NCBI GenBank assembly: GCA_013791905.1
Contig: VMSX01000030.1
Location: 74,741 to 104,740, forward strand
Direction of reading: 5' to 3'
Source: Rhodocyclaceae bacterium
Lineage (GTDB): Bacteria > Pseudomonadota > Gammaproteobacteria > Burkholderiales > Rhodocyclaceae
Length of the DNA: 30,000 bases
Shown: one piece after another, positions 1,688 through 27,568 of the stretch
Layout of the letters: each line of letters opens with the position of its first letter
Position numbering within the stretch: the first letter of the stretch is position 1
The notes under the pieces: model-generated
What the model was told of the DNA's origin: nothing
Databases searched by the model: none
Seen by the model: only the letters and a program-made list of their open reading frames with translations
Position numbers and translations under genes: made by a program

Positions 1688-3648
1688 GGCTTGAAGGCCG
1701 CCACTCGGCGGCGTAAATCATCAATGGTCAGTGGGGATGGGGCATCGTAACGCAAGCTGGCATACAGCGCAGCAATTGCCTGCATGTCCGCTGCGGTTTC
1801 AGGTAGTGCGGCAGCAACCCGCCGGGCATACTCCTGCGGGCCTTCCCAACTGTGCCGGGCGAGGCCACGTCGCGCCAGTCGGCGCGACAGCTTGCGCCAT
1901 TGCCGTTCTACGGGATCGAGACGTGGCCGGCGATAGAGCATCCAGCCGGCCAGCACCAGCAGCATGATGCCGGAGAGGAGGGCGAGCGTTGCCGTCATGC
2001 TGCGCCAGTCCGGCGCAGCCATGCCCAGCCGTTTGAGAAAGTCGCGCTGCCGCTCCGGGTTGTAGCCGAGCACCCACTGGTTCCAGGCATTGCTGACCGC
2101 CCACCAGCGAAAGCGCGCTTCGCGCAGCCAGTCGAGGCCGCTGCCAGCCAGCCAGGGCAGCGGCTCGCCAGCCGGCACGGCGGCGGCAAGATTCTGTTCG
2201 ATGCGCGCCGGCGCGCTGACGGCAGTGGGATCGACACGCAGCCAGCCCTGACCGTCCAGCCAGACCTCGGCCCAAGCGTGGGCGTCAGTCTGGCGGATCA
2301 CCCAGGTGTCATCGACAGGGTTGCGTTCACCACCCTGGTAACCGGTGACAACGCGTGCCGGCACGCCGGCGGCGCGCATCAGCACGACAAACGAGGCGGC
2401 GAAGTGCTCGCAAAAACCGCGCTTGTAGTCGAACAGGAATTCGTCGGCGACATGCAGGCTCATCAGGGGCGGCTGCAGCGTATAGATAAAGCGCTGCGCA
2501 CGCATGAATTCGATGGCGCGTTGCAGTCGCTGCCGGTCGCTGTCGCCCGCTGCCAGCCAGCTTGCGCCGAGGGCCAGCGTGCGCGGATTGTCCGTGGCCG
2601 GCAGGGCCAGCGCCTCGGCCAGTACCAGACGATTTTCAGGCGGGTAGCGCACGGTCGGTTGCGAATGGAGTTCGTAGCGGATGCGCTCGCGCACCGGTTT
2701 TTTAGCACGGAGCTGGAAGTCCGAAGTGCCCATAACATTGACATTGCCGGTGTCGGCGGGCAGGGCGGTAGGAAATTCAAGCGCGAACAGCCAGGGTTTG
2801 TTGTGCGGCTCCAGCGTGACAGCATAGGCATAGACAGTGCCTTCACTGCGTGGCTGATAAAACAGCCGCTGGTCCATCGACTGGATGCCTGCTTGCCAGT
2901 TGCGGCCTTCCAGACGAGCCAGCACCGGGCCGCGCCAGTAAAGTTCCTGCTTGGGCGGCACCGGGCCGTCGAACTTGGCGCGAAAGGCGATGGCGTCGGA
3001 CTGGATCAGGTTGTTGATCGCGCCGGGCGACATGTTGTCCGACAACCCGGTCAGGCCGCTATGAGCGTCGCTGGGCAAGCCCCACAGTGGGCCGGAGATG
3101 CGCGGAAACAGGACGAACAGGACCAGCATGAAGGGCATGGCCTGTACCAGCAGCAGCCCGGCAAGGCGGAGCAGGCTGGTCGCGCGTGCCTGCGCATCGG
3201 TCAGGCTGGCGAGCGCCGCAGTGGCGATGAGCAGGGTGCCGATCATGGTGAACGCCACCAGGATCGACTGATTCTCGAAAAACTGCGTGAGTGTCAGGAA
3301 ATAGGCGAGCAGCACCACGGCCAGCCCGTCGCGCGGCGCCCGCGCCTCGAGTTGCTTCAGCGCGAGAAAAATCAGCAGCAGCGCCACGCCGGCGCGCTGG
3401 CCGAACAGCGTGCGGTATTCCATCAGCACGCCCGCCGTGCCGGCGAGGCTGACAAAGATCAGCACCCAGCGCGTCGGCAGCGGCTGGCGCCACCAGGCCA
3501 GCGCGGCACGCCAGATGAATGCCGCGCCGGCCACGGCGGCGAGCCATAACGGCACTTGCGGCACCAGCGGCGCGTAAGCCGCCAGCCCCGTCGCCAGCAG
3601 CCACCAGGTCTGCGCCGGGGTGAGCGGGTGAGTGGGTACCTTAGACAT
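1684..3648 (-). CDS. Transglutaminase-like membrane protein (TgpA-type: N-terminal multi-TM region, transglutaminase core, C-terminal TM)
   Basis: Cys-His-Asp core context: GFCEHFAASFVVLMRAAGVPARVVTGYQGG ... DAHAWAEVWLDGQGWLRVDPT. I place the start at ATG 3648 (MSKVPTHPL). The track start at 3771 would read through repeat A1. Confidence 0.85.
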   Translation of the reverse strand: MSKVPTHPLTPAQTWWLLATGLAAYAPLVPQVPLWLAAVAGAAFIWRAALAWWRQPLPTRWVLIFVSLAGTAGVLMEYRTLFGQRAGVALLLIFLALKQLEARAPRDGLAVVLLAYFLTLTQFFENQSILVAFTMIGTLLIATAALASLTDAQARATSLLRLAGLLLVQAMPFMLVLFVLFPRISGPLWGLPSDAHSGLTGLSDNMSPGAINNLIQSDAIAFRAKFDGPVPPKQELYWRGPVLARLEGRNWQAGIQSMDQRLFYQPRSEGTVYAYAVTLEPHNKPWLFALEFPTALPADTGNVNVMGTSDFQLRAKKPVRERIRYELHSQPTVRYPPENRLVLAEALALPATDNPRTLALGASWLAAGDSDRQRLQRAIEFMRAQRFIYTLQPPLMSLHVADEFLFDYKRGFCEHFAASFVVLMRAAGVPARVVTGYQGGERNPVDDTWVIRQTDAHAWAEVWLDGQGWLRVDPTAVSAPARIEQNLAAAVPAGEPLPWLAGSGLDWLREARFRWWAVSNAWNQWVLGYNPERQRDFLKRLGMAAPDWRSMTATLALLSGIMLLVLAGWMLYRRPRLDPVERQWRKLSRRLARRGLARHSWEGPQEYARRVAAALPETAADMQAIAALYASLRYDAPSPLTIDDLRRRVAAFKP

Positions 3649-3658
3649 TGCTTTCGGA

Positions 3659-3806
3659 GCCTTGCCGCCGGGCCGCCCCAAGGCAAGGCGGCACGCGGCG
3701 CCAGCCGCAATCCGCACCCAAGCTTGAATGTGGACGTCCCGTAACAGACGAGCGCAGCGAGCAACAGTCACCTCTCCCGAGAGGGAGGGGCTGGGGGAGG
3801 GCGGGT
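3659..3806 (-). repeat. Structured intergenic repeat, type A, copy A1
   Basis: The plus strand reads GCCTTGCC-gccGGGCCGCCCCAA-GGCAAGGC ... GACGAGCGCAGCGAGCAACAGTCA-CCTCTC..GGGAGG-GGCTGGGGGAGGGCGGG. It fills the whole gap between the DUF58 stop (3807) and the tgpA-like start (3648). Strand is given as the sense in which the C-rich end comes first. Confidence 0.9.
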
Positions 3807-4781
3807 CTAATTTTCATAGAGCGCGAGCGCCTTGAGGCAGGCGTGGGTGTGCTCCGGGCCATGCGCCTGGGGGATATTGCCACCAGGCAAACGCAGGCCC
3901 CAGGACACTCCGGCGGCTTCGGTGTCGAGTACCCAGCGCGTCAATACCGACAGACGTGTTTCGACATCCATGCGCTGCGGCAGCATGTCCCAGTCGAGCC
4001 AGAGCGCCTGTGCAGCCGTGCCGGTGAACTGCTTGGTTTGCAATGGCGCCTCCGGACCTTGTCGCGCGACGGCTTTCCAGGCGACGTGGTGGGGCGGGTC
4101 GCTGGGCTGGTGACGCTTGAGGCCGGCAAAATCCTCATCGCCGCTGTCACCGGGCAGGAGCCCGCCTTCGATGCCACTGAAAGTCGGCGCTGGCGGGACG
4201 GCGCTGGCCGGTTGCGGATAAACCAGGCAGGTCAGGGCAGGCACGGCATAGCTCCAGGCGCGGATCAAACCCAGTGGCCAGAGCGTTTCAATGGTGACGT
4301 GCGGCATGGCGAGCCAGCCGCGATGCGTGGCGGGCTGCGGCAGCAGCACCCGTGCGCTGCCGCCCGGTGGCACGGTCATCGCCATGACCGCCTGTCCGGG
4401 CAGGAACAAGCGCAGCAGATGGCGTGGCCGCGGGTCCGGATTGTGCAGGATCAGCGGAAAGCGCGCGGTGTCGCCGGCAAATACCGGCAGGGCGGCGCCG
4501 ACGGTGATGGAGAGTCCGGCCTGGTTCCGAAAGGTATGCAGGATCGTGGCGACCCCCAGGCCGGCAAGCAGGAAGACCAGACCGTAGCCGAGGCTCAGGT
4601 TGTAATTGATCGCGCCGATCAGCATGACGATCAGCGACACGCCATACAACAGGCCGGCCCGACTCGGCAAGACATAGACGCGGCGCTGCGAGAGGACGAC
4701 GGGCACCGCTTCGGGTGGCCGCACGCGCAGTGCCCAGGCGGTGAAACGGTTGGATAGATTGCGACGCAGAGCAGGCAGCAT
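3807..4781 (-). CDS. DUF58 domain protein (the usual partner of MoxR/TgpA-type genes)
   Basis: Two N-terminal TM helices (LLYGVSLIVMLIGAINYNLSLGYGLVFLLAGLGVATIL). The DUF58-like core is DFAGLKRHQPSDPPHHVAWKAVARQG..LQTKQF. I prefer the start at ATG 4781 (MLPALRRNL). The track start at 4841 would overlap the divergent gene. Confidence 0.75.
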   Translation of the reverse strand: MLPALRRNLSNRFTAWALRVRPPEAVPVVLSQRRVYVLPSRAGLLYGVSLIVMLIGAINYNLSLGYGLVFLLAGLGVATILHTFRNQAGLSITVGAALPVFAGDTARFPLILHNPDPRPRHLLRLFLPGQAVMAMTVPPGGSARVLLPQPATHRGWLAMPHVTIETLWPLGLIRAWSYAVPALTCLVYPQPASAVPPAPTFSGIEGGLLPGDSGDEDFAGLKRHQPSDPPHHVAWKAVARQGPEAPLQTKQFTGTAAQALWLDWDMLPQRMDVETRLSVLTRWVLDTEAAGVSWGLRLPGGNIPQAHGPEHTHACLKALALYEN

Positions 4782-4792
4782 GGCCCTATGAT

Positions 4793-5497
4793 ATGCAGCT
4801 TGCGCCGACTTTGTCTGGAGACTGCTTGAAATCAATCGCACTTTTCATCGCCTTGCTGCTGGCCTTGCTGGCCTTGCCCATGCTGCTGCCCTCCGGGCCG
4901 GGCAAGCGCCCGGACGCGAACCCTGTAACCCTACCCTGGCAAATCGAACGCCTGCCCGATGGCGGGTCGCGCGTGTTCGGCCTGACGCTAGGCCGCAGCA
5001 CGCTGGCAGATGCCCGCCAACAACTGGGCGGTGACGTGCAGGTTGCCCTGATCGTGGCGCCGGGCGAGACCGGTTCGCTCGAGGCCTATTACGAGAGCAT
5101 TCACGCCGGCGCCGTGAAGGGCAAGATGGTCCTGACGCTGGATACTTCGCTCGCGCAGCGCGAACAGATGATCGCGCGGGCGCGCAAGGTTGATTACATG
5201 CAGAGTGCGGCGCGGCGGGTCGAGCTCGGTGCTGACGACCTGCTGCAGGCGGACCGGGCAACTATCATCGCGATTGCTTTCATTCCGGCGGCGAACCTTG
5301 ACGAAGAAGTGGTGCTGCAACGCTTTGGCGTGCCGGGCGAACGACTGCGCAGCAGCGAGCACAAGGAACATTTTCTCTACCCCGACCTGGGGCTTGAGTT
5401 GCAACTCGACGCCAAGGGCAAGGAAGTGCTGCAATATGTCGCGCCCCGCGATTTTGCCCGATTGCGCGAACCGTTGGCGACTTCGACAGTGCGGTAG
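4793..5497 (+). CDS. Hypothetical exported or membrane-anchored protein
   Basis: 234-aa ORF with an N-terminal hydrophobic segment (IALFIALLLALLALPMLL) and GC3-rich codon usage. I recognise no family. An alternative TTG start exists at 4826. Confidence 0.6.
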   Translation: MQLAPTLSGDCLKSIALFIALLLALLALPMLLPSGPGKRPDANPVTLPWQIERLPDGGSRVFGLTLGRSTLADARQQLGGDVQVALIVAPGETGSLEAYYESIHAGAVKGKMVLTLDTSLAQREQMIARARKVDYMQSAARRVELGADDLLQADRATIIAIAFIPAANLDEEVVLQRFGVPGERLRSSEHKEHFLYPDLGLELQLDAKGKEVLQYVAPRDFARLREPLATSTVR

Positions 5498-5665
5498 CGG
5501 ATTTCAGTTTATTGCAGCAGTCTCGCCGCCGGGCCGCCCCAAGGCGAGACGTCACGCGGCGCCAGCCGCAAACCGCGCCCAAGCTCGACCGGGGGCTCCC
5601 CGTGATAGTCGAGCGTAGCGAGCAACAGTCACCTCCCCGTGAGGGGAGGATGGGAGGGGCGGGCT
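5498..5665 (-). repeat. Structured intergenic repeat, type A, copy A2
   Basis: GTCTCGCC-gccGGGCCGCCCCAA-GGCGAGAC ... GTCGAGCGTAGCGAGCAACAGTCA-CCTCCCC-GTGA-GGGGAGG-ATGGGAGGGGCGGGC. It fills the convergent gap from the stop at 5497 and overlaps about the last 11-12 codons of the HicA-like gene. Confidence 0.9.
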
Positions 5666-5937
5666 CTTTCCGCTTCGTACGCCGATACGCTGATGCCGGC
5701 ATGGGTGAGGAATTCCCGCAGGTGCTTGATGTCCTGCCGGTTGAAGACGCTGCCCTGGTGTGGATGGTGCAGGAAGTATTCGTGGTGGTTGAGCAGCACG
5801 CGAAACCGCGCGCCATGCACCGGTTCGACCGATGCGCCGAGATGATTCAACAGCGACTCGATCTCCCTCCAGTGGATATTGGCGCTGACAGGTTCCTGAA
5901 ACAGACTGCGCAACAGATGCAGATGTTTATGGCTCAT
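5629..5937 (-). CDS. HicA-family toxin-like protein (orphan, no HicB partner seen)
   Basis: 102 aa from ATG 5937: MSHKHLHLLRSLFQEPVSANIHWREIESLLNHLGASVEPVHGARFRVLLNHHEYFLHHPHQ..DIKHLREFLTHAGI. This matches my recollection of the YcfA/HicA pattern (..I.W.dieaL...LGa......gs......g....fHrPHp....k..v..vr.fL...G). The track start at 6060 reads through repeat B1 and the tRNA. Confidence 0.6.
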   Translation of the reverse strand: MSHKHLHLLRSLFQEPVSANIHWREIESLLNHLGASVEPVHGARFRVLLNHHEYFLHHPHQGSVFNRQDIKHLREFLTHAGISVSAYEAERARPSHPPLTGR

Positions 5938-5940
5938 GAT

Positions 5941-6025
5941 CGTGCCTCCGTAGGGCCGCCCCCAAGGGGACACGCGCCCCCCTGTGGGGGCAGCGAGTCG
6001 ATGTTGCGAGCGTGGGGGGCCATTA
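5941..6025 (-). repeat. Structured intergenic repeat, type B, copy B1
   Basis: The plus strand reads CGTGCCTCC-gtaGGGCCGCCCCCAA-GGGGACACG, then GCCCCC-ctgt-GGGGGC-AGCGAG..TGTTGCGAGCGTGGGGGGCCATTA. It lies between the tRNA-Ser 3' end (6033) and the hicA-like ATG (5937). Confidence 0.9.
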
Positions 6026-6032
6026 TTTCTCC

Positions 6033-6122
6033 TGGCGGAGGTGGTGAGATTCGAACTCACGAACGCCTTGCGACGTTGCCGGTTTTCAAGACCGGTGCAT
6101 TCAACCGCTCTGCCACACCTCC
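6033..6122 (-). tRNA. tRNA-Ser (anticodon UGA)
   Basis: The 90-nt minus-strand sequence is GGAGGTGTGGCAGAGCGGTTGAATGCACCGGTCTTGAAAACCGGCAACGTCGCAAGGCGTTCGTGAGTTCGAATCTCACCACCTCCGCCA. Acceptor stem GGAGGTG/CACCTCC, anticodon stem CCGGT/ACCGG with loop CTTGAAA, long variable arm, T-arm GTGAG-TTCGAAT-CTCAC, encoded CCA. Confidence 0.95.
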
Positions 6123-11218: not shown

Positions 11219-13909
11219 ATGAACTACGAACAGCATTATCTGACCTCTCTCTTCGAGCCGAAATCGATCGCCATCATCGGCGCTTCCGAGACGCCGGGGT
11301 CAATTGGCAGCATCATGGTGCGCAATATCATCGATGGTGCCTTTCCGGGGCGGCTTTTTCTGGTCAACCCGGGCCATGACAAGGTTTTCGGTCAACGGGC
11401 CTACGCTTCGGTCGAGGATATCCCCCAGCGGCTCGATTTGGCGGTGATCTGTACCAAGGCTGAAACGGTGCCGGCCATAATAGATACCTGCGGTCGCGCC
11501 GGCACGCGCAACGCCATCATCATTTCCGGTGGTTTTGCCGAAATGGGTCCACGCGGCGCCAGTTTGTTTCGCTCCATGCTGGAAAGTGCGCGCCGCCACA
11601 ATGTGCGTCTGCTTGGCCCCAACAGCCTCGGCTTGATTCGCCCCGGCAGTTGCGTGAACGTCACCTTCGCGCACAGCAGCGCCAACCCCGGCACGGTCGG
11701 CCTGATCTCCCAGTCCGGTGCGCTCTGCACGGCGATTCTCGACTGGGCGCAGCCCAATAATGTCGGGTTTTCCAACGTCGTTTCGCTGGGTGCCGAGAGC
11801 GATGTGGACTTTGGCGAAGTGCTCGACTACATGGTCGCCGACTCCCGCACCGAAAACATTTTTCTTTACATCGAGGGCATCAAGAACGCGCGGCGCTTCA
11901 TGAGTGCGCTGCGCGCAGCAGCGCGTTGCAAGCCGGTGCTGCTGATCAAGGGCGGGCGCAACCCCGCCGGCAAGCAGGCCGCGCTGTCGCATAGCGGTGC
12001 CTTGCTCGGCTCCGACGACGTCTTCGATGCGGCATTGCGGCGTGCCGGCGTGGTGCGGCTGGGCAATGTCGGCCAGATGTTCGCCGCCGCCCAGGCCCTG
12101 TTCTCGCATTTCCGTCCGCGCGGCAATCGCCTGATGATCGTCACCAACGGCGGTGGTCTCGGCGTGATGGCGGCTGACCATGCTGCCGACATCGGCATTC
12201 CATTGGCCGCGATGTCTGAAGCCACCCTCAAACGCCTGAATGAAGCCTTGCCACCGACCTGGTCGAAAGCCAATCCGATTGACCTGGTTGGCGATGCCGA
12301 TCCGGCGCGTTATGCCAGCACGATCACCGCCTGTCTCGAAGATGACGGGGTCGATGGTGTGCTGGCGATCCTCGCACCGCAGGCGCTGGCCGATCCGACG
12401 CAGACTGCCCGTGCCGTCATTGAGGTGGCGAAAAAGACCGACAAGCCGCTGGTGACCTGCTGGATGGGTGAAGAGCAGGTGCGTGAGGCACGTCTGCTGT
12501 TCCAGGGGGCCGGCATTCCCACCTTCCGGACGACGGATCCTGCCGTCGAACTGTTCTCGCACATTTCCAACTACTACCGCAACCAGCAATTGCTGATGCA
12601 GGCGCCGGCATCGATTTCCGATCACACGCCGCCACGCCTGGAATCGGCGCGCCTGGTGATCGAATCCGCCCTGGCCGAAGGCCGCAAGTCGCTCAACGAA
12701 ATGGAATCGAAGGCCCTGCTGGCGGCCTTCCGCATTCCCATTGCCCAGACGGTGGTGGCGCGCTCGCCTTCCGAAGCCATGGTGCTGGCCGAGGAAATGG
12801 GCCTGCCGGTGGTGATGAAGATCGATTCGCCGCAAATCACCCATAAACTGGATTCGGGCGGTGTGCGCCTCAATCTCAATGCGCTGGTCGCCGTACGCGA
12901 TGCCTACAACCAGATCATCGACGAGGTGAAGAAGAATCGGCCCGATGCGGTCATTCATGGCATCGCCATCGAGCCGATGATCCAGAAGGCCAATGGTCGC
13001 GAACTGATGGTCGGCATGACGAAGGATCCGATTTTCGGTCCGACCGTCATCTTTGGCCCCGGCGGGGCGGGTATCGTGGCCAGCGGCAAGGATCGTGCAG
13101 TTGCCCTGCCACCGCTCAACCGTTTTCTGGTTGCCGATATGCTGGCGTCCACCCGCACCTCGGCACGGCTCGGCGAATTCCGCAACATGCCGCCGGTCAG
13201 CATGGAGGCGCTGGAAGCCGTGCTGCTGCGTGTTTCCGAGATGGTCTGCGAATTGCCCTGGATTCAGGAACTGGACATCAATCCGCTGATCGTCGATGAG
13301 AATGGCGCGGTCGCCGTCGATGCCCGCGTCGTCATCGACAATCTGTCGCTGACTGCCGGGCGCTACGATCACATGGTGATCCACCCCTACCCGTCGCACC
13401 TGGTCACGGAATACCAGGCCAAGGACGGCCGCACTGTCGTGATTCGTCCGATCAGTCCGGAAGATGGCGACCTGGAACAGGACTTCGTCAAGAACCTGTC
13501 GGCAGAAACCAAGTATTTCCGTTTCATGAACACCCTGCGCGAACTGTCACAGGCCCAGTTGGTGCGTCTGACGCAGATCGACTACGACCGCGAAATGGCT
13601 TTCGTCGCCTTGACCGAGGTGGATGGATGTCAGATTGAAGTCGGCGTGGCGCGTTATGCCATGAACCCCGATGGCGAATCCTGCGAATTTGCCGTGGTCG
13701 TCGCCGATGACTGGCAGGGCAAGGGACTGGCGCGCCGGTTGATGGGCGTGATCATCGATACGGCCCGTTCGCGCGGCATCAAGTTCATGAACGGCGATTT
13801 CCTCGCTGAAAACCGCCGCATGATCAAGTTTGTTTCCGGCCTCGGCTTCGTGCTCTCGCCGCATCCCGAAGACCCCGGCCTCAAGCGCGGCGTGCTGGTG
13901 CTTAATTGA
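11219..13909 (+). CDS. pat: Protein lysine acetyltransferase, Pat/PatZ architecture (NDP-forming acyl-CoA synthetase-like domains plus C-terminal GNAT)
   Basis: 896 aa. N-terminal CoA-binding region (KSIAIIGASETPGSIG..), a central ATP-grasp-like region, and C-terminal GNAT motif A (VVADDWQGKGLARRLM). Confidence 0.85.
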   Translation: MNYEQHYLTSLFEPKSIAIIGASETPGSIGSIMVRNIIDGAFPGRLFLVNPGHDKVFGQRAYASVEDIPQRLDLAVICTKAETVPAIIDTCGRAGTRNAIIISGGFAEMGPRGASLFRSMLESARRHNVRLLGPNSLGLIRPGSCVNVTFAHSSANPGTVGLISQSGALCTAILDWAQPNNVGFSNVVSLGAESDVDFGEVLDYMVADSRTENIFLYIEGIKNARRFMSALRAAARCKPVLLIKGGRNPAGKQAALSHSGALLGSDDVFDAALRRAGVVRLGNVGQMFAAAQALFSHFRPRGNRLMIVTNGGGLGVMAADHAADIGIPLAAMSEATLKRLNEALPPTWSKANPIDLVGDADPARYASTITACLEDDGVDGVLAILAPQALADPTQTARAVIEVAKKTDKPLVTCWMGEEQVREARLLFQGAGIPTFRTTDPAVELFSHISNYYRNQQLLMQAPASISDHTPPRLESARLVIESALAEGRKSLNEMESKALLAAFRIPIAQTVVARSPSEAMVLAEEMGLPVVMKIDSPQITHKLDSGGVRLNLNALVAVRDAYNQIIDEVKKNRPDAVIHGIAIEPMIQKANGRELMVGMTKDPIFGPTVIFGPGGAGIVASGKDRAVALPPLNRFLVADMLASTRTSARLGEFRNMPPVSMEALEAVLLRVSEMVCELPWIQELDINPLIVDENGAVAVDARVVIDNLSLTAGRYDHMVIHPYPSHLVTEYQAKDGRTVVIRPISPEDGDLEQDFVKNLSAETKYFRFMNTLRELSQAQLVRLTQIDYDREMAFVALTEVDGCQIEVGVARYAMNPDGESCEFAVVVADDWQGKGLARRLMGVIIDTARSRGIKFMNGDFLAENRRMIKFVSGLGFVLSPHPEDPGLKRGVLVLN

Positions 13910-13910
13910 A

Positions 13911-14099
13911 CCATCCCCCCGCCCCCCTTCCCCGGGAAGGGGGTGGCTGTGGTTCACTGCGCTCGAATATTATGGGCGACTCCGTTGCGACGGTGGTGCG
14001 GCTTGCGCCTGAGGCGCGTGTCCTCACGGCTTGGGGCGGCCCGGCGCCGTGACTGAGCCAAGCGGTGAAATTACAAAAGTCGGCGCTGACAAGACGGCG
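13911..14099 (+). repeat. Structured intergenic repeat, type A, copy A3 (with flank extension)
   Basis: The plus strand is the C-rich-first sense: CCATCCCCCCG-CCCCCTTCC-ccg-GGAAGGGGG..CACTGCGCTCGAA ... TCACGGC-TTGGGGCGGCCCGGC-GCCGTGA, then GGTGAAATTACAAAAGTCGGCGCTGACAAGACGGCG. That last stretch is homologous to the flank of A5. The copy starts 1 nt after the pat stop and overlaps the 5' end of tag. Confidence 0.85.
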
Positions 14100-14657
14100 C
14101 GTTGCGCCTGGTGTGGCGTTGATCCGCTCTATGTCGCCTATCACGACAATGAGTGGGGCGTGCCCTGCCATGACGAGCGCACGCTGTTTGAGTTCCTCAT
14201 CCTCGAAGGCGCGCAGGCCGGACTATCGTGGATCACCATCCTGAAGAAACGCGAGAACTATCGGCGTACCTTTGATGGCTTCGACGTGCAGAAGATTGCC
14301 CGCTACGGCGAGACAGACTTGGCGCGCCTGCTCGGCGATGCCGGCATCGTCAGAAACCGCCTGAAAATATCTGCCGCAATTAACAATGCCCGCGCCACGC
14401 TGGCGCTTTACGACGCTGGCTCAAGTCTTGATGCGCTGTTCTGGCAGTTCGTCGACAACGCCCCGGTCATCAATCGCTGGCAGCGACTCGACGAAGTGCC
14501 CGTCCATACGCCCGTTGCCGTCGCACTGGCCAAGGAACTCAAGCAGCGTGGCTTCCGCTTCGTCGGCCCGACGGTAATTTATTCGCACATGCAGGCGACC
14601 GGCATGGTGAACGACCATCTCGTCACCTGCCCGCGCCACGTTGCGCTGGGCGGTTGA
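14049..14657 (+). CDS. tag: DNA-3-methyladenine glycosylase I
   Basis: RCAWCGVDPLYVAYHDNEWGVPCHDERTLFEFLILEGAQAGLSWITIL is classic Tag. The only in-frame starts before the conserved RC are GTG 14049 and TTG 14031, and both lie inside repeat A3. Confidence 0.88.
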   Translation: MTEPSGEITKVGADKTARCAWCGVDPLYVAYHDNEWGVPCHDERTLFEFLILEGAQAGLSWITILKKRENYRRTFDGFDVQKIARYGETDLARLLGDAGIVRNRLKISAAINNARATLALYDAGSSLDALFWQFVDNAPVINRWQRLDEVPVHTPVAVALAKELKQRGFRFVGPTVIYSHMQATGMVNDHLVTCPRHVALGG

Positions 14658-14664
14658 AGGCGTA

Positions 14665-15066
14665 CTAAGCGGCGCGCGGTTCTATGTGCGTGCGTAGCCA
14701 AGCGGCGAATTCGGCTTCCGGAAGTTCGCCGGCGGCGAGGTCCAGCATGGTGACGACGCACTCGGCATCTCCTGCAACCAGGTCGTAGCCGTTAAGCGCC
14801 AGAAACAGTTCAGTCGCAATTAGCGCAGTACGCTTGTTGCCATCGACGAAGGGATGGTTGCGGACGATGCCGAATCCATATGTTGCAGCGAGTGCGGCGA
14901 CATCGGGATCGTCATAGGCAGCAAGGTTCTCAGCCCGGGCCAACGCGGAATCAAGCAAGCCGGCGTCGCGGGTTCCCGCAGCTCCGCCATGCTCGGCCAA
15001 TTGTGCGCTGTGGGCGGCAATGATCACATTCCGTTGAATCCATACCCAGCGGCTCTCAAGAAACAC
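14665..15066 (-). CDS. doc: Doc (death-on-curing, Fic-fold) toxin
   Basis: ..RWVWIQRNVIIAAHSAQLAEHGG..GIVRNHPFVDGNKRTALIATELFLALNG contains the Fic/Doc motif HxFxDGNKR. The start is either GTG 15066 (MFLESRWVW) or TTG 15081 (track). Both lie within the hairpin of repeat B3. Confidence 0.85.
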   Translation of the reverse strand: MFLESRWVWIQRNVIIAAHSAQLAEHGGAAGTRDAGLLDSALARAENLAAYDDPDVAALAATYGFGIVRNHPFVDGNKRTALIATELFLALNGYDLVAGDAECVVTMLDLAAGELPEAEFAAWLRTHIEPRAA

Positions 15067-15142
15067 GCCGGGCCGTCCCAAGTGTTTCTTGGCCCCTTGA
15101 GGGGAGAACCGAGCGCAGCGAATGTTTGCGGGGTGGGCTCAT
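15056..15142 (-). repeat. Structured intergenic repeat, type B, copy B3 (most diverged)
   Basis: The plus strand reads CAAGAAACAC-gccGGGCCGTCCCAA-GTGTTTCTTG-GCCCCTTGAGGGG..GAGCGCAGCGAATGTTTGCGGGGTGGGCTCAT. It occupies the whole antitoxin-toxin junction. Confidence 0.8.
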
Positions 15143-15363
15143 TTGGCCAGCTCGCGTAAGGCGGCGCGGCGCTTCTTCATGATGCGTTGCGCTTCGCTCA
15201 TCTGTTGCTCAAATGCTGGGTCGTTTGGCGTGACCACATACCCGTCCGGGGTTTCGGTCAGAAAGAGTGATTCGCCTTTCTCCAGCTTCAGATTGGCGAG
15301 GACTTCCTTGGGCAGGATGACGCCGATCGAGTTGCCGATCTGGGTCAGTTTGAGGACGTGCAT
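15139..15363 (-). CDS. AbrB/MazE/SpoVT-type antitoxin (Phd-equivalent partner of Doc)
   Basis: 74 aa: MHVLKLTQIGNSIGVILPKEVLANLKLEKGESLFLTETPDGYVVTP is a typical swapped-hairpin (AbrB-like) antitoxin N-terminus. GGAG lies 7 nt before the ATG. Confidence 0.85.
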   Translation of the reverse strand: MHVLKLTQIGNSIGVILPKEVLANLKLEKGESLFLTETPDGYVVTPNDPAFEQQMSEAQRIMKKRRAALRELAK

Positions 15364-19849: not shown

Positions 19850-20365
19850 ATGGCCGGGAAAAGCGAAAACTTCAGCGATCTCAATCGCAGGAATATGGAA
19901 GCCGCCATGCGGCTGGCGCAGATGTCCATCGAGAATTCACAACGCGTGATGACGCTGCAGAATGAATTGGCACGCGAAATGTTCCAGCAGGGCGTAGAGA
20001 ATGCCCGTAACCTGACGAGTGCCAAGGATCCGCAGCAGCTTATGCAACTGCGCACCCAGTACGCGCAGGAAACCGCCCAGCAGATGATGGTGGCGGCGCA
20101 GAAAGTTGCCGAAATCGGCAATGATGCCCGTGCGGAATTTACCCGCATGCTCACCGAGCAACTGGCGTCCGGCAACCAGGAAATGGTCGACGCCTTCCAG
20201 GGTTTTTTCAAGTCCATGCCCGGGCAAAATACGAACATCATGGAAGTCATGCAGCAGTCCATGGCGACGGCCAACAGCGCTTTCGAGCAGATTGCCCAAG
20301 CGTCGGCCGCAGCCTTCGGCGGCATGCCCGGCGTTGCGCCGAAAAGCGCTGCAAAGAAGAAGTAA
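19850..20365 (+). CDS. Phasin-family PHA granule-associated protein
   Basis: 171 aa, alanine/glutamine-rich and helical: NMEAAMRLAQMSIENSQRVMTLQNELAREMFQQGVENARNLTSAKDPQQLMQLRTQYAQE. AAGGAG lies 7 nt before the ATG. Confidence 0.8.
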   Translation: MAGKSENFSDLNRRNMEAAMRLAQMSIENSQRVMTLQNELAREMFQQGVENARNLTSAKDPQQLMQLRTQYAQETAQQMMVAAQKVAEIGNDARAEFTRMLTEQLASGNQEMVDAFQGFFKSMPGQNTNIMEVMQQSMATANSAFEQIAQASAAAFGGMPGVAPKSAAKKK

Positions 20366-20369
20366 GATT

Positions 20370-20508
20370 CCTTCCCCCGCCCCCTCCCATGTGAGGGGGT
20401 GAAGTTCCTCGCTGCGCTCGCTTGTTACGGGGTGGTTTTGTTCCTGTCGGGAGCGGGTTGCGGCTTCGCCGCGTGCCGTCCTACCTTGGGGCGGCCCGGC
20501 GGCAGGAC
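20370..20508 (+). repeat. Structured intergenic repeat, type A, copy A4
   Basis: The plus strand is the C-rich-first sense: CCTTCCCCCG-CCCCCTC-ccatgt-GAGGGGG..CCTCGCTGCGCTCGCT ... GTCCTACC-TTGGGGCGGCCCGGC-GGCAGGAC. It starts 4 nt after the phasin stop. A degenerate flank extension (CACAAAGGTCGCTGCG) may reach about 20551. Confidence 0.85.
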
Positions 20509-20554
20509 TGTACTGTTATTCCTTTACCGTTAGGCCTTCACAAAGGTCGCTGCG

Positions 20555-21061
20555 TTAATCCGGTTGCCAGCGTTTTGCAGCGAGGTCGTCTGTCGTGCGC
20601 GCATCGACCCAGCGGCCCCCCTCCGGGGTCTCTTCCTTTTTCCAGAACGGTGCCTGGGTCTTGAGATAGTCCATGATGAATTCGCAGGCGGCGAAGGCGT
20701 CGCCGCGATGCGCGGAGGAAACCCCGACAAAGACGATGCGTTCGCCTGGTAGCAGGCGGCCGACGCGATGGATGACGCGCACCGTGCGCAGTTCCCAGCG
20801 TTTTTGCGCAGCAGCCACGATGTCGGCCAGCGCCTGTTCGGTCATGCCGGGGTAGTGTTCCAGCGTCATCGCCGTTACTGCGGCGGGGCGCTCCGGCTGT
20901 GACGCCGTCTCGCCAGAGCCGGCTTTTTGCTCAGCCAGTTTGTCGGCGCGAACCAGGCCGACGAAGCTGGCGACCGCGCCCGCCATGGGATCTGCGGCGC
21001 TTAGCGCGGCGATCTCGGTGCCGACATCAAAATCGGCAACCTGGACGCTAACCTCTTTCAT
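20555..21061 (-). CDS. moaE: Molybdopterin synthase catalytic subunit
   Basis: ASFVGLVR..TLEHYPGMTE..VGVSSAHRGDAFAACEFIMDYLKTQAPFWKKE. I place the start at ATG 21061 (MKEVSVQV). The track start at 21082 lies inside repeat B2. Confidence 0.9.
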   Translation of the reverse strand: MKEVSVQVADFDVGTEIAALSAADPMAGAVASFVGLVRADKLAEQKAGSGETASQPERPAAVTAMTLEHYPGMTEQALADIVAAAQKRWELRTVRVIHRVGRLLPGERIVFVGVSSAHRGDAFAACEFIMDYLKTQAPFWKKEETPEGGRWVDARTTDDLAAKRWQPD

Positions 21062-21164
21062 GCCCTCGCAGGGCCGCCCCAAGAGGGCATGCGCCCCCCG
21101 TCACCGCTTCGGGTGATTTCATGGGGGGCAGCGAGCTGTTTATTGCGAGCGTGGGGGGCCATTA
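21059..21164 (-). repeat. Structured intergenic repeat, type B, copy B2
   Basis: The plus strand reads CATGCCCT-cgcaGGGCCGCCCCAAG-AGGGCATG, then GCCCCCC-(GTCACCgcttcgGGTGAt..)-GGGGGGC-AGCGAG..TTGCGAGCGTGGGGGGCCATTA. It fills the moaD-moaE junction. Confidence 0.9.
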
Positions 21165-21165
21165 A

Positions 21166-21411
21166 CTATCCACCGGTGACCGGGGGGAAGAAGGCGATCT
21201 CGTCACCGTCGGCAATGTCCGCGTCCATGCCACATACTTTCCGATTCACGGCGGCGCGCAGATTCTTTGTCTTCAGCAGCGCGGGATGTTGCCTGGCGAG
21301 AGCATCGCGCAAGCCGCCGACGGTCGTAACCTCCGGCGGGGGGGCGAAATTTTCGGCAGTTATGCCAATCGCTTCGCTGATGCTGGCGAAATAGAGGATT
21401 TTCAGGTTCAT
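21166..21411 (-). CDS. moaD: Molybdopterin synthase sulfur-carrier subunit
   Basis: 81 aa from ATG 21411 (MNLKILYFASI..), ending ..FFPPVTGG with the diagnostic C-terminal Gly-Gly. Confidence 0.9.
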   Translation of the reverse strand: MNLKILYFASISEAIGITAENFAPPPEVTTVGGLRDALARQHPALLKTKNLRAAVNRKVCGMDADIADGDEIAFFPPVTGG

Positions 21412-21418
21412 GGCTGGA

Positions 21419-22618
21419 CTATAGCAAATCAGCAAAGGAGAGAAAGCGTACGGTATCGCCGGCCTGGAACGACTTGCGCGGCGGATTATCGATCAGGCCG
21501 TCGGCCCAGACGCAGGAGGTCAGCACGCCGGAACCCTGATTGGGGTGCAACTCGGCGCGGCCGTCCGCGGTGATGCGCGCGCGCAGGAATTCGCGCCGGA
21601 TATCGGGCCGCACCCAGTCGGACGCCGACACCAGCTGATGTTCCACGGGCTGACAGCGCTGCGCGCCCATGCACCTGAGAATATACGGCCGCACCAGCAT
21701 CATGAAGGTGACGAAGCCGGAGACCGGATTGCCCGGCAGACCAATGAACGCCGTGCTGCCAATACCGATTTTGCCAAATGCAAGAGGTTTGCCCGGCTTG
21801 ATGCCGATCTTCCAAAGCGCCAGTTCGCCTTCAGCCTCGACGGCAGCCTTGACGTGATCTTCCTCGCCGACCGAGACGCCGCCGGTCGACAGGATCAGGT
21901 CATGGTCCGGCGCCGTGGTTTGCAAAGCCTGGCGCGTTGCAGCCAGATTGTCGGGAATCCGGCCGAGATCCGTGACCACGCAGCCCAGGCCTTCCAGCAG
22001 TGCATGCAAGGTGGGGCGGTTGGAGTTGTAGATGGCGCCCGACGGCAACGGCTCTCCCGGTTCGGCCAGTTCGTCGCCGGTCGACAGCAGGGCAACCCGC
22101 ATGCGCCGCCGCACCGGCAATTGTGCCAAGCCGACTGAGGCCGCCACGCCGAGTTCGGCCGCCCCCAGCTGCGCGCCGGCGGGCAGGACTTCCGCACCCG
22201 GCGCGATGTCTTCCCCGGCGCGCCGGATATGGTTGCTGGGTGTCGGTACTTGATTGATGACGACCCGGCCCTGGTCGTCGAGAATGCAGTGCTCCTGAAT
22301 CACTACGGCATCCGCACCCGCCGGAATCGGCGCGCCGGTGAAAATGCGCGCTGCCGTGCCGGGCAGCAGGGCATGGCCGACTTTGCCCGCCGGGATGCGC
22401 TGCTCGATAGGCAGGCTGACGCCCGTGGTGGTGACATCGGCGCAGCGCACTGCGTAGCCATCCATCGCGCTGTTATCGAGCGGCGGTACGGCGATGGTCG
22501 AGATTTGCGCCTCGGCGAGAATGCGCCCGCGCGCCTCGCTCAGTCCGACCGTCTCGATTGTGTTCACCGGCACGGCGGCCGCCAGCAGTTGCTCAAGTGC
22601 TTGTTCGTAAGTCAGCAT
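21419..22618 (-). CDS. moeA: Molybdopterin molybdotransferase
   Basis: 399 aa. Motifs: PLDNSAMDGYAV, LSTGDEL, STGGVSVGEEDHVK, and IKPGKP. Confidence 0.92.
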   Translation of the reverse strand: MLTYEQALEQLLAAAVPVNTIETVGLSEARGRILAEAQISTIAVPPLDNSAMDGYAVRCADVTTTGVSLPIEQRIPAGKVGHALLPGTAARIFTGAPIPAGADAVVIQEHCILDDQGRVVINQVPTPSNHIRRAGEDIAPGAEVLPAGAQLGAAELGVAASVGLAQLPVRRRMRVALLSTGDELAEPGEPLPSGAIYNSNRPTLHALLEGLGCVVTDLGRIPDNLAATRQALQTTAPDHDLILSTGGVSVGEEDHVKAAVEAEGELALWKIGIKPGKPLAFGKIGIGSTAFIGLPGNPVSGFVTFMMLVRPYILRCMGAQRCQPVEHQLVSASDWVRPDIRREFLRARITADGRAELHPNQGSGVLTSCVWADGLIDNPPRKSFQAGDTVRFLSFADLL

Positions 22619-24404: not shown

Positions 24405-26389
24405 CAAACAAGCTCCGCCTCAAAAAAAGCTTCGACATCGGCCAGTTCCCGGCTGCGTCGCATCGGTGGCAAGGACTGCCAGATGCGGCGGCCATAGGAT
24501 TTGCCGATCAGCCGCGGGTCGCACACCATCAGCACGCCGCGGTCGACTTCGTCGCGGATCAGGCGCCCGGCGCCCTGTTTCATGCTGATGACGGCACGCG
24601 GCAACTGTACCTCGAAAAACGCATTGCGGCCCTGCTGTTTCAGGCTGTCGATGCGTGCCGCCAGCACCGGATCGTCCGGCGGGGCGAACGGCAGCTTGTC
24701 GATCACCACCAGCGAAAGCGCCGCGCCACGGACATCGACGCCTTCCCAGAAACTCTGGCTGGCCACCAGCACGGCATTGCCTAGTTGGCGGAAGCGGTCG
24801 AGCAGTTCCGACTTCGAGCATTCGCCCTGCAGCAGCAGCGGCATCTCGGCGCCGGCCGCGGCAATCCGGGTGGCCAGCAACTCGTGGATGCGGCGCATGG
24901 CGCGCAGCGAGGTGCACAGCACGAAGGCGCCGCCGCGCGCTGCGCTCGACGCGCGAATGACCGGCCAGGCGGCTTCGACCACCGCTTCCGAATAATCGGG
25001 ATGGTTCGGCTCGGGCAAGCCCTGCGGGCAATACAGCAAGGCGTTCGCCGGGTAGTCGAAGGGACTGTCCCAGCGGCCCGTCGTCGCCTCGCTCAAGCCC
25101 AGCGCCTGCTGGTAATGGCTGAAATCGCTGCCGACCGCGAGCGTCGCCGAGGTGAATATCCAGGCGCGCGGATGGCCTTCCAGTTGGCGGCGAAAGATGT
25201 TGGCCACTGACAGCGGCGTGAGATTCAGGGTCACTGCATAGGTGCCGACCTCGACCCAGCGCACGTAAATCTCTTCTACATCACTTGTAGTCGCCGTTCC
25301 GCCAGCGCCGACTTTCTGTGTCTGCCAGTGTCGCAGTTGAAAAATGGTTTCACCACAGCGGCGCAGGCAGTTGGCGAGGCCTTCGGAACGTCCGGCCTGG
25401 CTTTCGATATGCTTGTTCAACTCGTCCAGCGTGCCTTGCAATTCCGCCAGCGCCGCTACCGCCGCCTCGTGCGTTTGCCACTGGGCGAACGACAGCCGCA
25501 TGCCTTCGTGCTTGAATGCCAGGCGCAGATCCTTGGTGGCTTTTTCCAGCGCGCGCGCGGCGTCCTGCAGCGGCGTGTAGTCCTTGGCGGCGGCGATGCC
25601 TTCCAGCTTCACGTCGCGCGCCAGATCGAGCAGCTGGCCGGTGCCGATGGCCTCGCCGAAAAACAGGCCGGCGACCTCGGGCAACTGGTGGGCCTCGTCG
25701 AAGATGACGGTATTGCAGGCCGGCAGCAGTTCGCCCATGCCGTCGTCCTTGAGCATGACATCGGCGAAAAACAGATGGTGATTCACCACCACCACATCGG
25801 CGGCCAGCGCCTCGCGGCGGGCGGCCACCACAAAGCATTCCTTGACGTAGGCGCATTCCTGGCCGAGGCAGTTGTCGCGTGTCGAGGTGGCCAGCGGCCA
25901 GGCGCCGGAATCGTCCGGCACGTCGCGGCACTCGGCCTTGTCGCCGGTCGCCGTCGCTTTGGCGAAGCGGGCGATGGCATTCAGGTGGATGACTTCGGCG
26001 CGTGAATTGAGTCGCCCGCCGGCCAGCGACCGTTCGAGGTGATACGGGCAGACGTAATTCGAACGCCCCTTCAACAGCGCCACTGTCGCCGGCACGCCCA
26101 GCGCTTTCCGCACGGTCGGCAGGTCGCGGTTGAAGAGCTGGTCCTGCAGGGTCTTGGTGCCGGTGGAAATGATCACCTTGCCACCGGACAATAGCGCGGG
26201 CGCCAGGTAGGCAAAGGTCTTGCCCGTGCCGGTACCCGCTTCGGCGATCAGCAGATCGTTGGCTTCGATGGCGGCGAGAACCCGGCGTGCCATATCGACC
26301 TGCTGATCGCGCAGGCGGTAACCTTCAATGGCCCGCGCGAGCGGTCCATCGGCAGCGAAGAGGCGTTCGAGATCAGGTTTGGCAGGCAT
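24404..26389 (-). CDS. dinG: ATP-dependent DNA helicase, DinG/YoaA family (Fe-S, XPD-like)
   Basis: Walker A EAGTGTGKTFAYL, DEAH box VIFDEAHQL, a Cys cluster (NYVCPYH .. AECRD .. DNCLGQECAYVKEC), and C-terminal QGAGRLIRDE. Confidence 0.88.
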   Translation of the reverse strand: MPAKPDLERLFAADGPLARAIEGYRLRDQQVDMARRVLAAIEANDLLIAEAGTGTGKTFAYLAPALLSGGKVIISTGTKTLQDQLFNRDLPTVRKALGVPATVALLKGRSNYVCPYHLERSLAGGRLNSRAEVIHLNAIARFAKATATGDKAECRDVPDDSGAWPLATSTRDNCLGQECAYVKECFVVAARREALAADVVVVNHHLFFADVMLKDDGMGELLPACNTVIFDEAHQLPEVAGLFFGEAIGTGQLLDLARDVKLEGIAAAKDYTPLQDAARALEKATKDLRLAFKHEGMRLSFAQWQTHEAAVAALAELQGTLDELNKHIESQAGRSEGLANCLRRCGETIFQLRHWQTQKVGAGGTATTSDVEEIYVRWVEVGTYAVTLNLTPLSVANIFRRQLEGHPRAWIFTSATLAVGSDFSHYQQALGLSEATTGRWDSPFDYPANALLYCPQGLPEPNHPDYSEAVVEAAWPVIRASSAARGGAFVLCTSLRAMRRIHELLATRIAAAGAEMPLLLQGECSKSELLDRFRQLGNAVLVASQSFWEGVDVRGAALSLVVIDKLPFAPPDDPVLAARIDSLKQQGRNAFFEVQLPRAVISMKQGAGRLIRDEVDRGVLMVCDPRLIGKSYGRRIWQSLPPMRRSRELADVEAFFEAELV

Positions 26390-26441
26390 GGCGGGCGCGG
26401 CATGGTAGCACGCGACATCTCAACTCTATTCGGCAAACAAA

Positions 26442-26638
26442 CGCCGTCCAGCCAGCGCCGACTTTTCTGATTTAACCCTCCCCAACTGTAGCCTTGCCGC
26501 CGGGCCGCCCCAAGGCAAGGCGGCACGCGGCGCCAGCCGCAAACCGCACCGCTACCAGAACAAAGCTCCGCGTGATAGACGAGCGCAGCGAGCAACAGTC
26601 ACCTCCCCCGTGAGGGGGAGGATGGGAGGGGGCGGGGC
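26442..26638 (-). repeat. Structured intergenic repeat, type A, copy A5 (with flank extension)
   Basis: The plus strand reads CGCCGTCCAGCCAGCGCCGACTTTTCTGATTTAACC..GCCTTGCC-gccGGGCCGCCCCAA-GGCAAGGC ... GACGAGCGCAGCGAGCAACAGTCA-CCTCCCCC-GTGA-GGGGGAGG-ATGGGAGGGGGCGGGGC. It ends directly against the cysK stop codon (26639). Confidence 0.9.
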
Positions 26639-27568
26639 TTAGACTTCAAGATGCTGGTAGAGCACTGTCGAGAGATAACGTTCGCCAAACGACGGAATGA
26701 TGACGACGATCAGCTTGCCCGCGCTCTCCGGGCGCTTGGCGACTTCGAGCGCGGCCCATACTGCCGCGCCGGAGGAGATGCCGACCAGCAGGCCTTCCTC
26801 GGTCGCCATGCGGCGCGCGGTGGTCAGCGCGTCGTCGTTCTTCACGCGGATGGTCTCGTCGTAGATCTTGGTATTGAGGATGGCGGGCACGAATCCGGCG
26901 CCGATGCCCTGGATCGGATGCGGGCCGCGCTGACCACCCGACAGCACCGGGCTGGCATCGGGCTCGACGGCGATGATCTTGACCTGCTTTTTGGCCTTCA
27001 GCACTTCACCGACGCCGGTGATTGTGCCGCCGGTGCCCACGCCGGAAATGAAGATGTCGACCTGACCATCGGTGTCGCGCCAGATTTCCTCGGCGGTGGT
27101 CTTCCTGTGGATGTCCGGGTTTGCCGGGTTTTCGAACTGCTGCGGGATGAAGTAGCGCGCGTCGGCCGCCGCCAGTTCCTCGGCTTTCTTGATCGCGCCG
27201 GGCATGCCCTCCGGTCCGGGCGTGAGGATCAGTTCGGCGCCATAGGCCTTGAGCAGTAGTTTGCGCTCGCGGCTCATGGTTTCGGGCATGACGAAGGTGG
27301 CCTGGTAGCCGCGCGCCGCGCAGACCATCGCCAGGCCGATGCCGGTGTTGCCCGAGGTCGGCTCCAGAATGATGGTGTCGGGCTTGATCTTGCCGGCCTT
27401 CTCGGCGGCATCGATCATCGCCATGGCGATGCGGTCCTTGACGCTCCCCGCCGGGTTGAAGAATTCGAGCTTCAGCGCGATCGTCGCGCTGTTGTCGGCA
27501 TTCATGCGGTTGAGGCGAACCAGCGGCGTGTGGCCGATCAGTTCGATGATATCGTTCGCGATTTGCAT
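26639..27568 (-). CDS. cysK: Cysteine synthase A (O-acetylserine sulfhydrylase)
   Basis: 309 aa. Motifs: [21 protein letters not shown] (PLP lysine), [22 protein letters not shown]. Confidence 0.93.

Follow-up and report, generated by a model that had tools for sequence, protein, structure and literature searches.

The moaD-moaE junction

In a Rhodocyclaceae bacterium, the genes moaD and moaE, whose products are partner subunits of molybdopterin synthase, are separated by a copy of a repeat that is here called the type B element. The junction lies in a 30,000-nucleotide (nt) stretch of contig VMSX01000030.1 (positions 74,741 to 104,740), which is referred to as the window. Its parts are listed below (ORF, open reading frame; SD, Shine-Dalgarno).

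21166..21411, minus strand: moaD, ThiS-family molybdopterin synthase small subunit (ORF list; Pfam PF02597, E = 8.9e-17; gene order the same in relatives)
21059..21162, minus strand: type B element, extending from its head ATG through the 3' hairpin arm, occupying the moaD-moaE gap and recognised by the head match
21058..21162, minus strand: bridging mini-ORF of 34 codons plus TGA, which shares ATGA with the moaE start
20555..21061, minus strand: moaE; its ATG (21061..21059) is borne by the element, within the 3' arm
21092..21129, minus strand: hairpin 1, GCCCCCC / GGGGGGC(G), from folding predictions
21122..21100, minus strand: nested 23-nt module ATGAAATCACCCGAAGCGGTGAC inside hairpin 1, with its own TCACC/GGTGA stem
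21059..21091, minus strand: hairpin 2, with the 5' arm CATGCCCTC (21091..21083), the loop TTGGGGCGGCCCTGC (21082..21068) and the 3' arm GAGGGCATG (21067..21059)

On the minus strand, the TAG stop codon of moaD (21168..21166) is followed by TTA and then by the ATG (21162..21160) of the mini-ORF, which encodes the peptide MAPHARNKQLAAPHEITRSGDGGRMPSWGGPARA and stops at TGA 21060..21058. The element head GGCCCCCCACGCTCGCAA of this copy spans 21160..21143. The moaD stop, the 34-codon ORF, the ATGA overlap and the stop-to-start distance of 104 nt were all present at the minus-strand coordinates given in the original prediction. A 168-amino-acid (aa) MoaE beginning at ATG 21061..21059 has a 100% identity match in public databases, and an SD-like GAGG is located 2 nt upstream of this start codon. 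Both the GAGG and the ATG are contained in the 3' arm of hairpin 2, which comprises 9 bp and has a predicted energy of -23.1 kcal/mol (z = -2.59; 3 of 200 shuffles fold equally well). The stability of the whole 141-nt region is ordinary for its G+C content (z = -0.73).

A hairpin on the moaE ATG had been predicted and was indeed found, slightly longer than noted, but its arms are not specific to this copy as had been supposed. The pair CATGCCCTC/GAGGGCATG recurs in L044 and L114, at the orthologous junction, and in the unrelated loci L077 and L054 (loci compared are given by L numbers), and it is a variant of the family consensus CATGCCTCC/GGAGGCATG. In L044 and L114 the 3' arm is followed by a further start codon (GAGGGCATG-ATG), whereas the window reads GAGGGCATG-AAA. 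Comparison of L044 (GAGGGCATGATGGAA) with the window (GAGGGCATGAAAGAG) shows that the second ATG is gone in the latter, which restricts moaE of the window to the element-borne ATG in the arm. A TTG in the hairpin loop (21082-21080, minus strand) is in frame with moaE and gives rise to a 175-aa ORF in the mechanical ORF list; the family consensus also has a loop TTG in frame with the downstream gene, a trap for start-codon prediction.

Empty and filled insertion sites

MoaE relatives were fetched with their DNA, and their moaD-moaE junctions were compared. The junction is empty in L115, L116, L117 and L118, with the two genes 1-8 nt apart, and filled in the window, in L044 and in L114, the last of which carries two copies. 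The empty Sulfuricystis sites (L115, L116) read GGAGGCTGA-G-ATG and L118 reads GGAGGATGA-GG-ATG, leaving a gap of 1-2 nt; the gap in L117 is 8 nt. In L115, L116 and L118 the native SD of moaE is formed by Gly-Gly codons of moaD. The ATG of the element head occupies the position of the native moaE ATG, 3-4 nt past the stop codon. Together with the head match, these relatives bear out the earlier claim that the gap is essentially one B copy. The suggestion that AGGGCATG might be host sequence did not hold: it is part of the family consensus, while at empty junctions GGAGGCTGAGATG or GGAGGATGAGGATG is found instead, so that AGGGCATG is element sequence.

A second junction, leuS-lptE, is empty in L119, L120 and L121. 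L122 contains a canonical copy whose TAA lies 2 nt upstream of the lptE ATG, and L086 and L093 contain fused copies. The filled and empty pairs show insertion at the start codon, possibly with duplication of 2-3 bp, AT or ATG. In L086 (5376-5950) and L093, both on the minus strand, the element frame is fused into lptE, an essential gene for which no other plausible start was seen. The resulting precursor of 189-190 aa (usual length, 163) starts with MAPHARKPCSLPP and continues into the lipoprotein signal peptide. The NCBI call for the fused gene is a 157-aa protein from an internal GTG, which leaves the signal peptide too short. The arms of the fused copy are GTTTTCGCC/GGCGAAAAC; its 5' arm departs from the consensus at 6 of 9 positions and its 3' arm aligns with native codons 2-3. 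Either many compensatory changes have occurred in these arms or they were templated from flanking DNA.

The type B family in Rhodocyclales

The family was scanned with the 18-nt head as query against one genome per bacterial species. Besides the window, GGCCCCCCACGCTCGCAA was found at no fewer than 121 places in at least 113 loci. About 50 Rhodocyclales assemblies, among them Sulfuritalea, Sulfurisoma sediminicola BSN1, Methyloversatilis and other Rhodocyclaceae, account for nearly all of the matches listed, and 3-4 of the matches listed were chance hits without the remainder of the element. The copies L067, L075 and L077 come from S. sediminicola BSN1, which is in culture. Typical B copies were also seen in bins not labelled Rhodocyclales, namely L012 (an Ignavibacteria metagenome-assembled genome, MAG), L006 (a Burkholderiaceae MAG) and L002 and others (Gammaproteobacteria); mis-binning or coarse labels are a more likely cause of these labels than a truly wider distribution.

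The family consensus consists of AT-GGCCCCCCACGCTCGCAA, six variable bases, CTCGCTG, CCCCCC-ACA-GGGGGG, CG, CATGCCTCC, TTGGGGCGGCCCGGC, GGAGGCATG and ATG. Since the consensus 3' arm holds an SD-like GGAGG together with the ATG, the arm belongs to the element. All class counts given here and below refer to the 104 analysable copies among the matches listed, of which 82 were assigned to class 1 (the moaE type) and 22 to class 2. Members of class 2 have the same core as class 1, mostly without the ATG, and their arms are GTCGGC/GCCGAC. A different repeat, GCGCCGACTTT, flanks them; some are arranged in tandem arrays, and they lie away from gene junctions.

Nested modules occur within B copies: the hairpin 1 loop may hold one of about 21 nt (ATGAAATCACCCGAAGCGGTGAC) and the hairpin 2 loop one of 24 nt, and there are others of 12 nt and of 39 nt, the latter located before CTGCCCCCC. 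Such modules were also seen in L079, L089, L011, L021, L082 and L099; the first five of these loci contain the hairpin 1 module, which is absent from the orthologous moaE copy of L044. An SD-like motif lies upstream of 29 of 82 heads, compared with 8-15 of 82 in control windows. Some copies (L122, 300-400; the 5' flanks of L015, L088, L074 and L027) are preceded by a purine-rich SD-like stretch and an A/T-rich spacer, for example AAGGAAACAAT-ATG. As this leader is absent from the empty leuS-lptE site, an optional 5' leader supplying an SD may form part of the element.

Position and reading frame of class-1 copies

The head codon of the 82 class-1 copies is ATG in 60, GTG in 9, TTG in 8 and another codon in 5. 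A co-oriented gene starts within 25 nt of the 3' arm in 70 copies, and the stop codon of an upstream ORF is found within 20 nt of the head in 67, as TGATG in 21 of them. The 70 gene-abutting copies precede 52 different genes, and their mini-ORFs relate to the next gene as follows.

ATGA overlap of the mini-ORF stop with the next start: 32/70
TGATG or TAATG overlap: 2/70
7-nt overlap: 2/70
stop 0-12 nt before the next start: 23/70
mini-ORF fused in frame with the next gene: 5/70
other: 6/70

The possibility, raised beforehand, that B copies elsewhere lack a frame ending at the next start was not borne out: the element frame stops between 7 nt inside the next gene and 12 nt before its start in 59 of the 70 copies, against 4/70 and 3/70 for the control frames, and 5 more copies are fused. 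These counts chiefly mark the architecture as a property of the element.

The variation between copies points to selection on translation, that is, on start, frame and stop. Single-base variants of the head ATG comprise 17 alternative start codons (GTG 9, TTG 8) against two ACG. The distance from head to loop is divisible by three in 70 of 82 copies, and the inserted modules add 3, 12, 21, 24 or 39 nt. Where the tail CATG has changed to CATA, all 12 copies, some of them orthologous, keep a TAA or TAG in frame. Altered tails restore ATGA in the copies shifted by one base (L015, L074 and L027). Spacer and module measure 7 and 23 nt in the window copy and 6 and 24 nt in L079 and L089, so that the one-base differences cancel. 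Furthermore, the tandem pair at the moaD-moaE junction of L114 forms one 55-codon ORF that still ends in ATGA.

These variants bear on an alternative in which the element is a passive selfish repeat, similar to repetitive extragenic palindromic (REP) sequences or miniature inverted-repeat transposable elements (MITEs). The ATG, the open frame and the ATGA would then be by-products of duplication of an ATG target and of G+C richness, and any translation of the mini-ORF would have no effect. A start-codon duplication of 2-3 bp would fit the head ATG and the CATGATG of the tail, and the openness of all three frames, the class-2 copies and tandem arrays away from gene starts, and the symmetry of G-U and A-C mismatches described below are also in keeping with a passive repeat. 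Nevertheless, this alternative seems unlikely in view of the head variants, which are nearly all start codons, the modules in multiples of three, the stops kept in 12 of 12 altered tails and the compensating tails of frame-shifted copies. Unlike decaying junk, orthologous copies are 87% identical outside the head, compared with 65% at neighbouring third codon positions; the corresponding value for codon positions 1 and 2 is 89%.

Covariation of the terminal hairpin

Covariation was tested in 63 copies free of gaps. Changes on both sides were seen at every one of the nine arm pairs, giving 105 cells compared with 24.8 in shuffles, and none of 500 shuffles reached as high a value. When the partner was slid by 1-3 columns, pairing fell from 93% to about 50%. 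In several copies the arms are unrelated but perfectly complementary. Little variation is seen in the stem formed by the C-run and G-run or in the inner GGG/CCC stem. Hairpin energies have a median of -19.6 kcal/mol, and GGAG or GAGG is present in 48 of 70 3' arms. Mismatches in class-1 arms are G-U in 32 cases and A-C in 33.

It is conceivable, though improbable, that the terminal hairpin is rewritten at insertion. Its 5' arm would then be an inverted copy of the host sequence just 3' of the insertion point, and the ribosome-binding site (RBS) or first codons of the new host gene would be sequestered automatically. This idea is hinted at by the lptE copy, by the class-2 3' arm and tail, which repeat the 5' flank GCGCCGACTTT, and by the unrelated complementary arms.

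The conservation pattern is also relevant to the proposal that the element is a cis-regulatory RNA module, in which a trans-acting protein or small RNA binds the invariant loop or head and opens or closes the hairpin, setting the translation of many operon-internal genes together, with the mini-ORF being secondary. Such a factor would suit the near-constancy of the head, the C/G runs and the loop TTGGGRCGGCCC beside covarying arms, the sequestration of SD and AUG by a CCUCC-containing arm, and a level of conservation at orthologous sites that matches codon positions 1 and 2. The proposal is doubtful, however, because the 52 downstream genes, among them moaE, glmS, nuoJ, mlaF, lptE, hisS and carB, have no obvious functional theme. 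The core is also present in non-genic class-2 copies and tandem arrays, and the Rfam search described below returned no match for the element. A pairing between the head GGCCCCCC and the loop GGGGCGGCC was dropped as a candidate, as the common loop variant GGGAC lacks a matching head change in the copies read, with no formal covariation test.

That the mini-ORF encodes a functional small protein is extremely unlikely. The N-terminus MAPHAR of the peptide recurs in many copies, but codons 7-9 and the arm codons vary freely, and the changes in the arms are compensatory in the nucleic acid and not in the peptide. A functional protein would moreover mean many divergent copies per genome. No match to the mini-ORF peptides was found in Pfam or NCBIfam.

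A candidate ribosome relay

On comparative grounds, the moaD-moaE spacer, a copy of a dispersed Rhodocyclales repeat, probably holds a ribosome relay and an RBS-sequestering hairpin, and its insertion would leave the downstream gene supplied with ribosomes. The relay would have three parts: a start codon at the 5' edge, 1-15 nt past the upstream stop; a frame of about 27 codons (34 here); and a terminal hairpin of about -20 kcal/mol. The 3' arm of the hairpin contains an SD-like GGAGG or GAGG plus ATG, with the stop of the frame either overlapping this ATG as ATGA or just preceding the gene's own start. A ribosome that finishes moaD, or one that binds at the old moaE initiation site, would start on the element ATG and translate through the element, melting both hairpins. 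It would terminate at the UGA overlapping the moaE AUG and either re-initiate there or leave the site accessible to a further ribosome. Independent initiation should be blocked by a stem of about -20 kcal/mol that covers an SD and AUG, and in the absence of ribosome passage the hairpin would keep the moaE start closed. MoaE synthesis would therefore be tied to MoaD synthesis despite the 104 inserted bases. Translation of the C-rich spacer might also shield it from Rho. Both RNA-unfolding and re-initiation models of translational coupling have been reviewed (PMC12548453). The proposal that the element occludes the moaE start and reopens it through its own ORF had been made in the original prediction; comparison of the copies supports it, and from this we infer translation of the mini-ORF and the dependence of MoaE upon it.

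Several points weigh against a relay. All three frames are open in the G+C-rich element, so an open frame by itself means little. The copies share descent, and raw counts are hence not independent events, which places the argument for selection on the variants. Gene starts were called by a simple heuristic based on ORFs and G+C content at third codon positions (GC3), and the SD-like upstream motif is present in only the 29 of 82 heads mentioned above. Class-2 copies lie off gene junctions, indicating that the core is able to persist without a relay role. As G-U mismatches are no more frequent than A-C ones, the hairpin could matter in DNA instead of in the sense RNA. Finally, a relay requires just an open frame and a stem, which leaves the near-invariance of head, C/G runs and loop unexplained; the element sequence must be constrained or homogenised by something else, whether a mobilising enzyme, gene conversion or a trans-acting factor.

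The position of the hairpins right after a stop codon invites another explanation, namely that they are REP-like mRNA stabilisers or transcription terminators for moaD. Stable G+C-rich stem-loops at such a site, and the occurrence of related type A elements at gene 3' ends in the window, would agree with this role. It is nonetheless very unlikely, given that in 70 of 82 copies the start of the next gene adjoins the 3' arm or lies within it. A terminator in the spacer would shut off moaE, the gene for the molybdopterin synthase subunit that pairs with MoaD. The terminator role was rejected: the stem has no following T-run, and a terminator scan of the element gave no site.

Comparison with known repeats and coupling systems

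The relay proposed for the B element most readily calls to mind mycobacterial interspersed repetitive units, or MIRUs. As summarised from Supply et al. 1997 in PMC3184786 and PMC12548453, MIRUs are intergenic operon repeats of 40-100 bp in one orientation, with a small ORF that overlaps the flanking stop and start codons. According to the same summaries, they are thought to insert at start codons, their ORF achieves coupling by a 4-nt overlap, and tandem copies occur. The B element is similarly placed between co-oriented genes and in the same orientation (70/82; upstream stop in 67/82), and its internal ORF overlaps or abuts the flanking stop and start (59/70; TAG-TTA-ATG and ATGA in the window). 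Filled and empty sites likewise show insertion at a start codon, and tandem copies are found in both. The hosts differ, however, being mycobacteria (Actinobacteria) for MIRUs and Betaproteobacteria for the B element; the likeness lies in the anatomy as described, and a sequence relationship is not expected. The B element further adds its own SD-like motif and ATG locked in a covarying hairpin of about -20 kcal/mol, and it has nested hairpin modules and a sister class outside gene junctions. Since the real matches listed are all from Rhodocyclales, membership in MIRU proper is not claimed.

In Neisseria, the REP2 repeat lies immediately upstream of genes and supplies an RBS and ATG; it also contains a promoter and acts as a 5' untranslated region (PMC3184786). 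The B element resembles it as a betaproteobacterial repeat directly upstream of genes with an SD-like motif and ATG in its 3' arm, but differs in sitting between co-transcribed genes with a bridging ORF that stops on the next start. A scan of 20400..21700 for sigma-70-like promoters found none, unlike the promoter-bearing REP2. By this comparison the B element is a member of neither MIRU nor Neisseria REP2, and would combine a MIRU-like working with a covarying, RBS-sequestering hairpin.

Classical coupling through RBS-sequestering hairpins is known for MS2 coat-lysis, f1 genes VII-IX and rpmI-rplT (PMC12548453). There, as proposed for the B element, secondary structure shuts off the downstream start, which a ribosome translating the upstream frame then opens or re-uses, with ATGA or TGATG overlaps. 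The classical structures are each tied to one operon, whereas the B device is a portable repeat at 52 or more gene junctions. REP and BIME elements and in-frame repeats such as the Rickettsia palindromic elements (PMC3184786, PMC3733652) share with it the character of high-copy G+C-rich palindromes, single, clustered or composite, and some repeat families are tolerated in coding frames. REP and REPIN sequences are palindromes of 20-40 bp that RAYT transposases mobilise. Unlike REP, BIME and REPIN sequences, the B element lacks GTAG and CGTC tags at the foot of its stem, where it reads GGGGGGCG|CATGCCTCC; it lies at gene starts and not at 3' ends, and has arms that vary around a conserved loop. 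It also differs from MITEs, in that the head GGCCCCCCACGC and tail GGAGGCATG are not mutual inverted copies and only a possible 2-3 bp AT(G) duplication was seen. At gathering thresholds the sole match of the window in Rfam 15 was a tRNA, and at permissive ones none appeared up to E = 5 across 20950..21250. A literature search with the element motif strings returned no relevant paper in the library covered, and one for Sulfuritalea repeats returned nothing specific.

Related repeats in the window

The core TTGGGGCGGCCC has six exact and two one-mismatch occurrences in the window compared with 0.42 expected. This loop core closes three element types there, type B among them. The other repeats of the window are the following.

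5934..6023, minus strand: second type B copy, with the same head and a 29-codon mini-ORF ending in ATGA on the ATG of the next gene
3610-3811 (minus), 5471-5672 (minus), 13901-14102 (plus), 20356-20557 (plus) and 26442-26643 (minus strand): five copies of the type A element, about 180-200 nt
15010-15211, minus strand: third element type, with the shared loop TTGGGACGGCCC and the arms AAGAAACAC/GTGTTTCTT, beginning right after a stop codon
16425-16451, 25291-25317 and 26441-26467 (plus strand), 4175-4203 and 14064-14099 (reverse orientation): REP-like 24-26-mer CGCCGTCCCGCCAGCGCCGACTTT

In the second B copy, TGA 5936..5934 overlaps the next ATG (5937..5935), and the 3' arm GGAGGCACG (5949..5941) carries the SD of a weakly HicA-like gene (5629-5937, minus strand), whose match to HicA_toxin is under the Pfam cutoff. 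This copy lies directly downstream of a tRNA-Ser (6033..6122), with AGGAG 5 nt before its ATG. The final 13 or so codons of the HicA-like gene extend into the type A element at 5471-5672, so that its C-terminus appears repeat-derived.

Type A elements are made up of a C-rich hairpin, a GTTGCTCGCTGCGCTCG motif and a terminal hairpin with the loop TTGGGGCGGCCCGGC, as in type B. Their arms differ and yet are complementary (GCCTTGCC/GGCAAGGC, GTCTCGCC/GGCGAGAC and TCACGGC/GCCGTGA). The copies at 5471-5672 and 20356-20557, at least, lie between convergent genes, at the 3' ends of these. In L011 (3527-3673) the third element type was seen as a tandem pair. The REP-like 24-26-mer flanks class-2 B copies in other genomes, where the class-2 3' arm and tail repeat GCGCCGACTTT.

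Implications

Gene callers misplace starts near these elements, giving for example a 175-aa MoaE from the loop TTG and an LptE of 157, 163 or 189 aa, and they ignore the mini-ORFs. The many copies before different genes, with their covarying arms, constitute a natural mutational series for weighing re-initiation against RNA unfolding in translational coupling. As a compact natural part that would couple any pair of genes while a hairpin keeps the downstream start locked, the element is of interest for operon design. If the proposed relay is true, the B element of Rhodocyclales would be, after the mycobacterial MIRUs, a second independent case in which a repeat offsets the effect of its insertion through a ribosome relay, and such a relay would suggest a general solution for mobile DNA inside operons.

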